A stretch of 64,000 bases of DNA from Planctomycetota bacterium (GCA_965223545.1 OZ245006.1:3872001-3936000); one strand, 5' to 3'. Shown: positions 40,781-45,216, numbered from the stretch's first letter. The notes: generated by a model not told the origin, from the letters alone. Made by a program: numbers and translations.

Positions 40781-40859
40781 GAGCACGCCACTCTACCGGC
40801 ACTCTTGAAAGTACGGAGCCAGTCCTGCCCCGGCAGATTTGTCGGCCCTTCAGGGCAGG

Positions 40860-41060
40860 AAACTAGCCGCTGAGGAAGGGGGAGGGGAACGTGTGAGGGG
40901 CCCGGCAGCTACGCCCCCAATAGCCACTGGAGCACGTTTGCCCCAGAGCCAGTCTGGGTCCGAGTTGGCCATCCTTCACTGGTGAGGGGCACGTCGCCGT
41001 GCCCACTCCCGCAGGTCAGATTCGTTTGATCGCCGCCTCGGGCCGGGCCCACCACAACAA
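40860..41060 (+). ncRNA. Candidate IS110 bridge RNA (non-coding left end; also present in copy 2)
   Basis: Two stem-loops containing GAGCCAGTC (40946-40954, equals left junction) and CAGGTCAG (41012-41019, equals IS right end + core); boundaries approximate. Confidence 0.6.
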
Positions 41061-41072
41061 TGAGGATGAAGT

Positions 41073-42455
41073 ATGGCTGGGAAGAGCAGAACGAGGAAGG
41101 GCAAGAAGCCCGCAGCGGAAGTATTGCCAGTCGTGAAGCCCAACGCCGCCGGAATCGACATCGGCAGCCGCGAGCACTGGGTGTGCGCAGCAGCACCCGA
41201 CGGCAGTCGTCCGATCAAGCGATTCGGAACGACGACGCCCCAGCTAGAGGCGCTCGCGGACTGGCTGGAGGAGCTCGGAGTGCGATCCGTCGCGATGGAG
41301 AGCACCTATGTCTACTGGATTCCCGTCTACGAGCTACTCGAGTCGAGAGGCTTCGAGGTCATCCTCGCGAATGCCCGCGAGGTGAAGAACGTGCCGGGCC
41401 GCTCCAAGTCCGATGCCAGCGATTGCAGTTGGCTGCAGAAGCTACACACCTATGGCCTCATTCGCGCTTCGTTCCGGCCTCCGAAGGACATCTGTGCGTT
41501 GCGGACCCTGCAACGCCATGCCGCGTCTTTGATCGCGCAGCGCACGCGCCACACGCAGTTGATGCAGCGGTCACTGGATCAGATGAACGTGGCGATCCAT
41601 CGCGCGGTAACGGACATCACCGGCAAGACCGGCCTCGCGATCATCCGCGCGATTCTCGCTGGTGAACGCGACCCTCGAGCGCTCGCCAGACTGCGTGATC
41701 CGCGCTGCAAGATCTCCGAGAAGGAGCTCGCGGATCACTTGCAAGGGACCTGGATCGAGGAGCACATCTTCACTCTCGCTTCGGGCTTGCGGATGCTCGA
41801 GCACACCGACCACGAGATCGAGTCGGTCGAGAAGCGATTGATGGCGATGATCGAGGACCTGCAACCGGAGGAAGCCAAGACGGCTGACGTCCCCGAGCAT
41901 CCAGACCCCCGCAAGGAGAGGAGCATCCGAACGAAGGGCGGCCGGGAGCTTCGCGATGCCCTCTGCCGGCTCGTCGGGTGTGATCTCACGCGAATCGACG
42001 GTATCAGCCCGAGCACGGCCATGATCGTGCTCACCGAGGTCGGCTACGACCTCGATGCTTTCCCGACCGAGAAGCACTTCGTCTCCTGGCTACGCCTGTG
42101 CCCACGTCAAGCCGTCTCGGGTGGAAAGCGCATCAAGAAGCACCGCAACAACATCGCGGTCAGCAGGATCGCCACGGTCCTCCGGATGGCCGCCCTGTCC
42201 CTCCAACGTACTCAGACAGCTCTCGGCGCACACTTCCGCAAGATCGCCCGCGCGAAGGACGGCAACGTCGCCATCTTTGCCATCGCCCGCAAACTGGCCC
42301 TGCTCATCTACCGCATGCTGAAGTTCGGCCAGGACTACGTAGACGAAGGCGCCAAGGCCTACGAGGAGCGCTTCACCCAGCGACGCATCGTCGGACTCCG
42401 ACAGAACGCTAAATCCCTCGGGTACAAGCTCATACCGATCGTCGAGGCTGGGTGA
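41073..42455 (+). CDS. IS110 family recombinase/transposase
   Basis: DEDD RuvC-like GIDIG...AMESTYVYW...KSDASD; C-terminal IDGIS, WLRLCP...SGGK, IARKLA. Confidence 0.96.
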   Translation: MAGKSRTRKGKKPAAEVLPVVKPNAAGIDIGSREHWVCAAAPDGSRPIKRFGTTTPQLEALADWLEELGVRSVAMESTYVYWIPVYELLESRGFEVILANAREVKNVPGRSKSDASDCSWLQKLHTYGLIRASFRPPKDICALRTLQRHAASLIAQRTRHTQLMQRSLDQMNVAIHRAVTDITGKTGLAIIRAILAGERDPRALARLRDPRCKISEKELADHLQGTWIEEHIFTLASGLRMLEHTDHEIESVEKRLMAMIEDLQPEEAKTADVPEHPDPRKERSIRTKGGRELRDALCRLVGCDLTRIDGISPSTAMIVLTEVGYDLDAFPTEKHFVSWLRLCPRQAVSGGKRIKKHRNNIAVSRIATVLRMAALSLQRTQTALGAHFRKIARAKDGNVAIFAIARKLALLIYRMLKFGQDYVDEGAKAYEERFTQRRIVGLRQNAKSLGYKLIPIVEAG

Positions 42456-42531: not shown

Positions 42532-43533
42532 ATGCCCAGGACGACTCGGGTCGACTTCCCCGGAGCGTGGCATCACGTCGTGAACCGTGGCTTGGCGAAG
42601 AGGACCGTCTTCGAGAATCGCGCCGACATGCGTCGGTTCTTGGCCGGCCTCGCACGCGCCGTGCGTCGCGGAGAGATCGAGCTCCACAGCTACTGCCTGA
42701 TGACGACCCACTTTCACCTTCTTGTCTCGAGCCCGCGCGGTCTCCTTTCGACCGCGATGCGGCGAGTGGAGCAGAGCTACGTCCGTCGGTTCAACCGCCA
42801 GCGGCGCCGCGACGGGTCCTTGTTTCGCGGTCGGTTCTTTTCGAGGCCAGTCCACTCCGACGCGGACCGGAGAATCGTGGTGCGCTACATCGACCACAAT
42901 CCCGTGGCAGCGCGCGTCGTCGACGTGCCGACGGAGTATGAGTTCGGGAGCGCGTCTCGGTTCGCCTCCGACAGTGTTCCGCCGTGGCTCGCCATGGGGT
43001 GGATGCGTGACGTGCTTGCCGGTGCGGCGTTCGCGGGGCGATCCCGCGCCGAGACGTATCTGGATGCCTTCGGCGAGATCGGCGCCGATCACCGGCATTT
43101 GGTGCACCGGCGCATGGAGCACCGTCCTCGGGAAAGCGACCCTCTCGACGATCTCCTTGCCGCAGCTCCCGAGGCAGTGCGGCAATGGATGATGAGGAAG
43201 GCTCGCCTCGCCGACGGCAGCCGGCCGGGGTTGCCCCTCTTGGGCCCGAGATCCGCCATGTTGGCCTGTGCCGACGATCAGGCGCGACGTGGGCCCTGGT
43301 CCGTTGTGGTCCGCTCCCGTTCGCGCGACGCGTCGCGGCTGGCGCAGGTCTATCTGCTGCGCGATGGCTGCGGGTTCTCGTTTGCGGAGATCGCAAACCA
43401 ACAGGGGATTTCGCCGGCGACCGCAAGCCGGTGCTTCGACGCACACCTGGCAGCGATGAAGGAGGATCACGACTACGCGGCGCGGCTAGCGACCCTGGCG
43501 CAGGATGCCTTCAGGCGTTGTCATCAAAGGTGA
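42532..43533 (+). CDS. REP-associated tyrosine transposase (Y1 HUH) with C-terminal HTH
   Basis: WHHVVNRG, YCLMTTHFHLL (HUH), YVRRFN, GSLFRGRF, RYIDHNPV; C-term SFAEIANQQGISPATASR. Confidence 0.9.
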   Translation: MPRTTRVDFPGAWHHVVNRGLAKRTVFENRADMRRFLAGLARAVRRGEIELHSYCLMTTHFHLLVSSPRGLLSTAMRRVEQSYVRRFNRQRRRDGSLFRGRFFSRPVHSDADRRIVVRYIDHNPVAARVVDVPTEYEFGSASRFASDSVPPWLAMGWMRDVLAGAAFAGRSRAETYLDAFGEIGADHRHLVHRRMEHRPRESDPLDDLLAAAPEAVRQWMMRKARLADGSRPGLPLLGPRSAMLACADDQARRGPWSVVVRSRSRDASRLAQVYLLRDGCGFSFAEIANQQGISPATASRCFDAHLAAMKEDHDYAARLATLAQDAFRRCHQR

Positions 43534-43544
43534 TGAATCGGAGC

Positions 43545-45193
43545 CTGACCTGAAACTCACCCAGCCTCGACGATCGGTATGAGCTTGTACCCGAGGGATT
43601 TAGCGTTCTGTCGGAGTCCGACGATGCGTCGCTGGGTGAAGCGCTCCTCGTAGGCCTTGGCGCCTTCGTCTACGTAGTCCTGGCCGAACTTCAGCATGCG
43701 GTAGATGAGCAGGGCCAGTTTGCGGGCGATGGCAAAGATGGCGACGTTGCCGTCCTTCGCGCGGGCGATCTTGCGGAAGTGTGCGCCGAGAGCTGTCTGA
43801 GTACGTTGGAGGGACAGGGCGGCCATCCGGAGGACCGTGGCGATCCTGCTGACCGCGATGTTGTTGCGGTGCTTCTTGATGCGCTTTCCACCCGAGACGG
43901 CTTGACGTGGGCACAGGCGTAGCCAGGAGACGAAGTGCTTCTCGGTCGGGAAAGCATCGAGGTCGTAGCCGACCTCGGTGAGCACGATCATGGCCGTGCT
44001 CGGGCTGATACCGTCGATTCGCGTGAGATCACACCCGACGAGCCGGCAGAGGGCATCGCGAAGCTCCCGGCCGCCCTTCGTTCGGATGCTCCTCTCCTTG
44101 CGGGGGTCTGGATGCTCGGGGACGTCGGCCGTCTTGGCTTCCTCCGGTTGCAGGTCCTCGATCATCGCCATCAATCGCTTCTCGACCGACTCGATCTCGT
44201 GGTCGGTGTGCTCGAGCATCCGCAAGCCCGAAGCGAGAGTGAAGATGTGCTCCTCGATCCAGGTCCCTTGCAAGTGATCCGCGAGCTCCTTCTCGGAGAT
44301 CTTGCAGCGCGGATCACGCAGTCTGGCGAGCGCTCGAGGGTCGCGTTCACCAGCGAGAATCGCGCGGATGATCGCGAGGCCGGTCTTGCCGGTGATGTCC
44401 GTTACCGCGCGATGGATCGCCACGTTCATCTGATCCAGTGACCGCTGCATCAACTGCGTGTGGCGCGTGCGCTGCGCGATCAAAGACGCGGCATGGCGTT
44501 GCAGGGTCCGCAACGCACAGATGTCCTTCGGAGGCCGGAACGAAGCGCGAATGAGGCCATAGGTGTGTAGCTTCTGCAGCCAACTGCAATCGCTGGCATC
44601 GGACTTGGAGCGGCCCGGCACGTTCTTCACCTCGCGGGCATTCGCGAGGATGACCTCGAAGCCTCTCGACTCGAGTAGCTCGTAGACGGGAATCCAGTAG
44701 ACATAGGTGCTCTCCATCGCGACGGATCGCACTCCGAGCTCCTCCAGCCAGTCCGCGAGCGCCTCTAGTTGGGGCGTCGTCGTTCCGAATCGCTTGATCG
44801 GACGACTGCCGTCGGGTGCTGCTGCGCACACCCAGTGCTCGCGGCTGCCGATGTCGATTCCGGCGGCGTTGGGCTTCACGACTGGTAATACTTCCGCTGC
44901 GGGCTTCTTGCCCTTCCTCGTTCTGCCCTTCCGAGCCATACTTCATCCTCCTTGTTGTGGTGGGCCCGGCCCGAGGCGGCGATCAAACGAATCTGACCTG
45001 CGGGAGTGGGCACGGCGACGTGCCCCTCACCAGTGAAGGATGGCCAACTCGGACCCAGACTGGCTCTGGGGCAAACGTGCTCCAGTGGCTATTGGGGGCG
45101 TAGCTGCCGGGCCCCTCACACGTTCCCCGCCCCCTTCCTCAGCGGCTAGTTTCCTGCCCTGAAGGGCCGACAAAATCTGTCGGGGCAGGACTG
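43545..45193 (-). mobile_element. IS110-family insertion sequence, copy 2 (inverted)
   Basis: Bounded by CTG at 43545-43547 and 45191-45193; differs from copy 1 by a few SNPs and a 1-nt indel. Confidence 0.92.
43557..44939 (-). CDS. IS110 family recombinase/transposase
   Basis: Identical to 41073..42455 except residues 3 and 5. Confidence 0.96.
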   Translation of the reverse strand: MARKGRTRKGKKPAAEVLPVVKPNAAGIDIGSREHWVCAAAPDGSRPIKRFGTTTPQLEALADWLEELGVRSVAMESTYVYWIPVYELLESRGFEVILANAREVKNVPGRSKSDASDCSWLQKLHTYGLIRASFRPPKDICALRTLQRHAASLIAQRTRHTQLMQRSLDQMNVAIHRAVTDITGKTGLAIIRAILAGERDPRALARLRDPRCKISEKELADHLQGTWIEEHIFTLASGLRMLEHTDHEIESVEKRLMAMIEDLQPEEAKTADVPEHPDPRKERSIRTKGGRELRDALCRLVGCDLTRIDGISPSTAMIVLTEVGYDLDAFPTEKHFVSWLRLCPRQAVSGGKRIKKHRNNIAVSRIATVLRMAALSLQRTQTALGAHFRKIARAKDGNVAIFAIARKLALLIYRMLKFGQDYVDEGAKAYEERFTQRRIVGLRQNAKSLGYKLIPIVEAG

Positions 45194-45216
45194 GCTCCGT
45201 ACTATCGCTAACCGTC

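Follow-up and report, generated by a model that had tools for sequence, protein, structure and literature searches.

A 64,000-nucleotide (nt) stretch of a Planctomycetota bacterium genome (GCA_965223545.1, OZ245006.1:3872001-3936000; this whole stretch is called the window, and positions are given in its numbering) contains a gene for a Y1 (HUH) transposase, an open reading frame at 42532-43533, bracketed by an inverted repeat of about 1.65 kb whose arms are two copies of an insertion sequence (IS) of the IS110 family. The best explanation of the locus as a whole, to which we assign a probability of roughly 0.55 from sequence comparison, is that an active, RNA-guided IS110 element targets the palindromic repeats of the Y1 transposase, and that its donor DNA is most likely read as a folded single strand. 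We would put at even odds the broader proposal that a widespread clade of IS110 bridge recombinases uses such a donor, with a fourth guide reading a site inside the left end. IS110 elements that target repetitive extragenic palindromes (REPs), and AG cores, are already known, and the IS-gene-IS arrangement is real but ordinary; what is new is the RNA and end anatomy of the element. Published systems are discussed throughout on the basis of those portions of the cited sources that were available to us.

Independent insertions of one IS110 element

The source genome comprises 8.1 Mb in two contigs, with 70% GC. Both IS copies encode intact 460-aa IS110 recombinases with PF01548 and PF02371 domains, scoring 248 bits against NF033542 (cut-off 140), and residues D29, E76, D114, D117 and S349 align with the DEDD and serine positions of IS621. 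There are 23 full copies in the genome, at 99.4-100% identity, and one 114-bp fragment. When the IS is excised in silico from either arm, a palindrome is rebuilt, and the insertion point is its 3-nt loop. In the IS-free genome 127 sites match this 13-nt palindrome with at most one mismatch, and 22 of the 23 full copies sit in the loop of such a repeat. The suggestion of the initial annotation, that the palindromes around the gene were each invaded by the same IS110, is thus borne out both at the locus and genome-wide. The palindrome occurs across the genome with 22 of the 23 copies in one, and therefore its halves are not part of the element; 85 exact empty sites likewise lead us to reject that possibility. 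None of the observations that the initial annotation named as refuting its reading was made. Among the genomes of five relatives, two contain the repeat motif (8 and 2 matches) and three have none.

The core was first given as CAG, which we reject in favor of AG, because the 23rd copy is joined at a bare AG and 16 of the 24 homologs with both junctions share exactly 2 nt (3 nt in six, 4 nt in one, 0 nt in one). The right end lies 12 nt beyond the recombinase stop codon. The 23rd copy is part of a tandem duplication at C1:4826058-4829693, which also includes 171 bp of upstream DNA; the right end of the first copy joins a non-repeat site at the bare AG, without a target match. This resembles one-sided recombination, but could alternatively be an assembly artefact. 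One-sided tandem expansions that keep the donor-side match have been described for other IS110s (10.64898/2026.08.14.744561). At C1:988112-988240, an internally deleted remnant joins 114 bp from the start of the gene to a complete right end, and its right flank is non-repeat DNA. No replichore bias of the insertions is evident from strands and GC skew, counted by eye.

The left and right copies differ at nine sites (eight substitutions and one indel). The left copy, a mosaic haplotype, is identical to a copy at C1:5042861, while the right copy is identical to five others. Because the copies differ in this way and match different copies elsewhere, they represent separate insertion events, which supports two independent site-specific insertions over a composite transposon, as had been proposed. 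A composite transposon would be one unit with a single target site at its outer ends, whereas here the targets and the haplotypes are separate. The paired layout is the expected coincidence of a repeat-seeking IS: as 22 of the 110 matching repeat sites (20%) hold the IS and 88 are empty, the odds of a double hit on two named sites are about 0.04, and no special cause is needed. Elsewhere, both members are occupied in one of 23 close pairs of repeats, and in the closest homolog (L025, 78% identity) two right ends face each other in a repeat doublet, too. The loss of cis function that the initial annotation proposed for the gene would have left its reading frame intact, with 88 of the repeat sites still empty.

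A predicted bridge RNA with reversed guide order

RNA homologs were sampled at 163 loci, counting that of the window; 147 cover the gene start and 122 have alignable RNA, with 93 distinct guide sets. For 40 close homologs RNAalifold yields two internal loops within covarying stems, in which 94% of cells are paired and 21 of 34 pairs show changes on both sides. The predicted RNA lies upstream of the gene, in the long left end; a search of Rfam returned only a chance-level match.

The 3' strand of loop 1, the target guide, matches the element's own left junction at 7 or more of 9 positions in 58 of 78 homologs (other guides, 14.5%), and for the 3' strand of loop 2, the donor guide, 54 of 82 show a match to the right end of the same element (other guides, 12.6%); the guide cross-controls gave 11/82 and 25/78. 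The other strand of loop 1, the 5' one, is complementary to the right flank once 2 nt are skipped: with 120 offset combinations tried, 33, 30 and 30 of 49 homologs pair at flank positions 2-4, where 17-19 are expected. Pairing at three or more of four positions is seen in 26 of 45 (7.4 expected; four circle-like or sibling-end rows dropped); clustering at 60% identity leaves 13, of which 8 pair in this way where 2.9 would be expected. Within the genome, one base in the guide match separates the used repeat (22/110 occupied) from a sister repeat (0/44, p=5e-4). The covariation across homologs shows targeting through the left-end bridge RNA, in which a guide of about 8 nt reads the left flank and core, and a shorter guide the right flank.

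The first base of the left end is the same as the base after the target guide in 45 of 49 homologs. This base behaves as expected for the handshake bases of Hiraizumi et al. (PMC11208158), if it is the non-coding strand that is exchanged. A circularly permuted RNA, with the handshake bases after the short guide, was rejected as those bases covary with an RNA stem, and a target hairpin was rejected as a clade-wide requirement, being present across the core in 2 of 23 reconstructed targets; for this element itself, none of 16 non-repeat 10-mer matches is occupied (p=0.07). The guide order is of the IS1111 type, reversed relative to IS621; the available text of PMC11213020 and 10.1101/2025.05.14.653916 does not mention guide order.

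Two groups of homologs have distinctive targets. The target guides of L107, L108 and L129 match the right end of sibling elements, and these appear to insert into each other's ends. In a subclade (L045, L071, L144, L150, L155, L197, L199 and L203) the core is AA, the target guide terminates in an A run, and the site may resemble the frameshift motif at the end of IS3 orfA.

A displaced fourth guide and a proposed folded donor

The 5' strand of the donor loop shows no pairing signal with core-adjacent bases at skips 0-4 across the homologs, and on this ground a fourth guide pairing beside the core was rejected. This part of the loop instead matches a stretch within the left end, about 23-30 nt in, that is preceded by a conserved hairpin and followed by a displaced inverted repeat. 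On the DNA strand that the other donor guide also matches, 6 or more of 8 positions agree in 42 of 52 elements (background 21%), compared with 12 of 52 on the other strand. In a position-anchored test, 37 of 51 elements match where 6.2 are expected, or 7 of 9 against 1.1 after clustering at 50% identity. In the clade of at least 50% identity 29 of 37 elements reach 7/8 (9.8 expected), and below 50% identity the mean is 5.4 versus 3.4. This rule was first noticed by eye in these data, and the earliest tests are therefore not independent; the previously unused rows among the 37 give 14 of 15, with 5.7 expected.

The surrounding anatomy is conserved in its spacing. In 38 scorable elements, the hairpin starts 7-8 nt inside the core in 27, the match follows directly after the hairpin in 33, and the inverted repeat comes 4-5 nt later in 32. 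Sub-terminal inverted repeats of 5-10 bp are found in 26 elements, the left one being displaced about 37 nt inward. The displaced left repeat complements the right end in 44 of 49 elements; where the right-end motif is non-standard, it tracks that motif in 11 of 16 and fails to do so in 4 of 16.

Since both donor guides would in this case pair with one strand, a folded single-stranded donor is suggested. The sequences show that an active, RNA-guided IS110 targets dispersed repeats belonging to a resident Y1 transposase with a probable helix-turn-helix (HTH) tail, here in two separate events. In the mechanism that we propose, its polarity, reversed with respect to IS621, would have the non-coding strand cut and exchanged first. 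Once the ends are joined, this strand would form the left-end hairpin at the far side, and the two sub-terminal repeats would pair as a closing stem. Between stem and hairpin a bubble would remain. One of its sides, 14 nt long, would consist of 7 nt, the core and 5 nt, and the other, 13 nt long, would contain the fourth-guide match; the two guides of the donor loop could pair with these two sides, and a single strand could in this way present both donor arms. If this is true, RNA-guided recombination would be joined to the hairpin-ended single-strand logic of IS200/IS605 elements, and such enzymes could insert single-stranded donors.

For IS621, a donor window of 14 nt with the core at positions 8-9 has been described (PMC11208158, 10.1101/2025.05.14.653916). 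Whether IS110 movement proceeds through single- or double-stranded circles is currently disputed: single-strand excision, with single-stranded circles and single-strand donors, has been reported for IS621 (10.64898/2026.08.31.748434) and CazIS110-1 (10.1101/2025.10.25.684509), while duplex substrates are treated in PMC13626964. This clade may offer a concrete answer as to how a single-stranded circle could satisfy a loop that normally pairs with both strands.

Weighing the proposed folded donor against its alternatives

Several observations weigh against the mechanism as proposed. Computed DNA folding gives the closing stem in 25 of 26 elements on both strands, with neither strand favored, and the closing stem of the element studied here reaches a probability of only 0.32-0.38, owing to competing pairing. 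Wobble pairs show a slight bias towards the non-coding strand (8 A.C versus 1 G.T, p=0.04), which is thin, and to which the commonest haplotype of this element is an exception. In ISPpu9, an element with an AG core that targets REPs, mutation of the left-end palindrome did not stop circle formation, and the authors suggest a role in integration (PMC12288879). In a held-out plasmid set (14 loci, 12 with an RNA match and 8 scorable; 7 of 14 in motif-based scoring), homologs of 42-46% identity have retained three guides along with the hairpin and the inverted repeat, but match the fourth guide weakly: 0/8 and 0/7 reach 6/8, with means of 3.9 versus 3.1 and 4.1 versus 2.7. On the target side, none of 103 perfect 9-nt matches to the target guide elsewhere is occupied, and therefore the 9-nt guide alone does not explain targeting. 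The handshake signal derives from only 5-6 changes on the tree and falls short of significance when these are treated as independent pairs. Finally, neither a circle junction nor an empty allele was present in the assembled contigs of 4 of 12 public runs over 39900-43590, although nothing follows from their absence in such contigs.

Two homolog contigs read from the right end into their own left end, as a circular intermediate might. In one run (X4, of which about two thirds was read), the summed contig depth over 40768-42503 of the window is 4,000-22,000 on the IS and 0-13 on the unique flanks, which is not evidence of amplified circles.

The most serious alternative, which we consider possible but clearly less probable than a folded donor, accepts the same element and the independent insertions, and supposes that the donor is ordinary double-stranded DNA recognized by a half match of right-end guide and core. 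The left-end stretch would then serve another role, such as promoter-repressing RNA-guided binding or, within a longer transcript, that of a structural switch. Recombination on a half match has been documented for IS621 (10.64898/2026.08.31.748434), the bare-AG joint of the 23rd copy would fit it, the fourth-guide match fades in the distant subclade, and ISPpu9 is regulated by long structured 5' regions and antisense RNAs (PMC12288879). Against it, the shared motif has no complementary partner in the elements' own non-coding ends (3/51, compared with a background of 10.7%), and the fixed spacings of hairpin, match and repeat rebuild a donor window of 14 nt, something not expected of a regulatory role. 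Nor was a sigma-70-like promoter found on 40700-42600, in a scan that excluded the joined ends.

It is rather improbable that the fourth guide reads the internal stretch on a double-stranded circle, the hairpin being extruded as a cruciform inside the recombinase complex with no free single-stranded donor. The near-equal folding of the two strands is compatible with this, as is the preference of CazIS110-1 for a double-stranded donor at one junction (10.1101/2025.10.25.684509), but it would require melting of about 57 bp and intrastrand re-pairing of the two repeats, and the weak G.T bias favors folding of the non-coding strand only. Least credible by far is that the two IS copies and the gene between them act as a composite transposon, or as an invertible switch that is under selection and controls the Y1 gene. 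RecA could recombine the 1.65-kb inverted repeat, so that inversion of the gene is possible in principle, and the 3' part of the left copy has the alleles of the right copy at two informative sites, as gene conversion would leave. Against this, mosaic or variant sequence at these sites is also seen in three further copies in the genome, the two copies are of different haplotypes, and a target can be reconstructed for each of them separately. For double occupancy a chance of about 4% is expected. Both outer ends are left ends and so should not allow excision as a standard left-end/right-end circle, and no inverted joint was found in the four contig sets, which could not show one reliably.

The Y1 transposase and its GTAC-tagged repeats

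We return to the folded-donor reading in the comparison below; the gene between the two IS copies is considered first. Its product has the HUH motif at residues 60-62 and a catalytic Y119 in a Y---NP motif, and the gene is flanked by inverted repeats. These features agree with the initial label of REP-associated tyrosine transposase (RAYT); the label does not hold in the strict sense, as the protein scores 63.5 bits against NF047646 (RAYT), under the cut-off of 80, and the foot of the flanking repeats is GTAC rather than the canonical GT(A/G)G. At the C-terminus an HTH is indicated by a weak match to PF08281 at residues 269-298 (E 2e-4, below the curated cut-off). Because the gene misses the RAYT cut-off, has a probable C-terminal HTH and lacks GT(A/G)G-tagged REPs, its sequence fits the description of TIRYTs, TnpA-Y1 subclass 2.1.2 or RAYT group 1 better than that of a canonical RAYT. 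With these (PMC3733652, PMC6006769, PMC5581495) it shares the HUH and Y---NP core, probably the C-terminal HTH, a low copy number and flanking inverted repeats. The TIRYT motif GGGG[AT][CG]A[CG] is present with two mismatches at this gene and one at a paralog.

The genome has two such paralogs, at 45% identity, each flanked by its own family of GTAC-tagged inverted repeats (about 110-125 copies). The sister repeat of the second (L001, C1:1729868-1730845) has 125 copies, none of which holds this IS among the variants counted. At 16 homologous Y1 loci, as read from the output, flanking inverted repeats occur in 12, GTAC on both arms in six of those, and the exact TIRYT motif in three. The Y1 gene thus appears to work like a RAYT with repeats of its own, yet falls outside canonical membership, and it may be the agent that spreads the repeats. 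According to Quentin et al. (PMC6006769), subclass 2.1, with its HTH tail, corresponds to TIRYTs and to RAYT group 1, and they found no REP-like hairpins beside its members, whereas here two paralogs each have a GTAC-tagged family; the word GTAC is absent from the available text of Di Nocera et al. (PMC3733652). Our data add a family of repeats tagged with GTAC that goes with a Y1 transposase of the HTH-tailed kind, a subclass for which such hairpins are reported to be lacking.

A separate, short Y1 gene occurs 12 times, as copies of about 800 bp that are 90-96% identical (C1:1355010, 2260328, 7214346 and nine more places). All three loci scanned have a group II intron domain (RF02001) nearby, which suggests that the intron targets the left side of this element.

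Comparison with known IS110 systems

With IS621 (PMC11208160, PMC11208158) the element shares a DEDD and serine recombinase, a long left end with a two-loop RNA, a short right end, a 2-nt core, a repeat target and a 14-nt window. Its recombinase is only distantly similar (E 7.5e-11), having 460 aa with a long central insertion; the core reads AG on the coding strand, and the long guides are on the 3' strand of each loop. In IS621 the bottom-strand guide lies 5' of the top-strand guide (top being the coding strand), an order that is reversed here, and the donor guides pair with opposite strands beside the core, in contrast to the internal same-strand match of our element. The IS1111-type seekRNAs of ISEc11, ISKpn4 and ISPa11 (Siddiquee et al., PMC11187229) share the placement of the top-strand match before the bottom-strand match in the target loop, as well as sub-terminal inverted repeats. 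Their RNA, however, is downstream of the gene in a long right end, while ours is upstream, and in our element a hairpin precedes the left repeat, which lies about 37 nt from the end.

ISPpu9 of Pseudomonas putida (PMC12288879) has in common with this element the AG core, insertion into REPs, a palindrome near the left end and the apparent lack of a junction promoter; a match of a guide to an internal site is not described for ISPpu9 in the available text, and its palindrome is dispensable for circles. ISPpu10 (10.64898/2026.03.19.712850) is likewise an IS110 found in REP hairpins, often in convergent pairs, but it has a CT core and uses a target stem-loop as a specificity gate, whereas the conserved hairpin of our element belongs to the donor end. 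ISAzo22 and ISCARN20 (ISfinder names; Supplementary Table 1 row 653, PMC11208160) have the same motifs in the aligned RuvC and Tnp segments, and judging by eye probably belong to the same recombinase clade; we found no paper naming the two together with IS110.

As for the folded single-stranded donor read by a displaced guide, we found no description of a fold-back or single-stranded donor of this kind in the available text of the papers searched, a search that covered neither figures nor bioRxiv supplements; the supplementary structures of 10.64898/2026.10.21.760802 may include the clade. That recent survey built donor sites from the first 25 nt of the element minus the core, and therefore most of the internal match would be cut off. 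Our analysis may supply rules for the design of such recombinases, a group open to misreading by standard pipelines.

Features of the locus and neighboring genes

Table 1. Features of the IS110-Y1-IS110 locus (window coordinates).
Feature	Position	Strand
Left GTAC-tagged palindromic repeat, outer half (host target, left arm)	40806..40820	+
Left IS110 copy, including AG cores 40821-22 and 42466-67; mosaic haplotype	40821..42467	+
Left-end hairpin, beginning 7 nt inside the core	40830..40845	+
Internal left-end stretch, 6/8 to the donor-loop 5' strand; proposed displaced donor arm	40845..40852	+
Displaced sub-terminal inverted repeat, complement of 42455-42460	40859..40864	+
Bridge RNA with two internal loops, predicted from covariation	40898..41050	+
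Target loop 5' strand; complements right flank after 2-nt skip, last bases are the core-binding dinucleotide	40919..40928	+
Target loop 3' strand; 9-nt guide, 8/9 to left flank and core, then putative handshake bases 40953-54	40944..40954	+
Donor loop 5' strand; matches internal left-end stretch, not core-adjacent bases	40971..40980	+
Donor loop 3' strand; guide, 8/9 to right end and core	41011..41019	+
IS110 recombinase, left copy, 460 aa	41073..42455	+
Short right end: inverted-repeat half 42455-60, donor arm, core	42455..42467	+
Left palindromic repeat, inner half	42468..42481	+
Y1 (HUH) transposase gene, intact, 333 aa; stop codon within right repeat	42532..43533	+
Right palindromic repeat, inner half	43531..43544	-
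Right IS110 copy, both cores included; second haplotype	43545..45192	-
IS110 recombinase, right copy, 460 aa	43557..44939	-
Predicted bridge RNA, right copy; end positions transferred from left copy, guides placed directly	44962..45114	-
Right-copy left end: inverted repeat 45148-53, internal match 45160-66, perfect hairpin 45167-83	45148..45183	-
Right palindromic repeat, outer half	45193..45207	-

Upstream of the locus, 37114-39330 encodes a dynamin-like GTPase of 738 aa. Directly after the right repeat, 45217-46410 encodes a serine hydrolase of a beta-lactamase-like family, which scores far under all named beta-lactamase cut-offs. Further on, a predicted secreted protein (46448-47431) is divergent from a region at 47603-51306 that encodes an extracytoplasmic function (ECF) sigma factor and, after it, a protein in which a Ser/Thr kinase is fused with an FGE-sulfatase-like domain.

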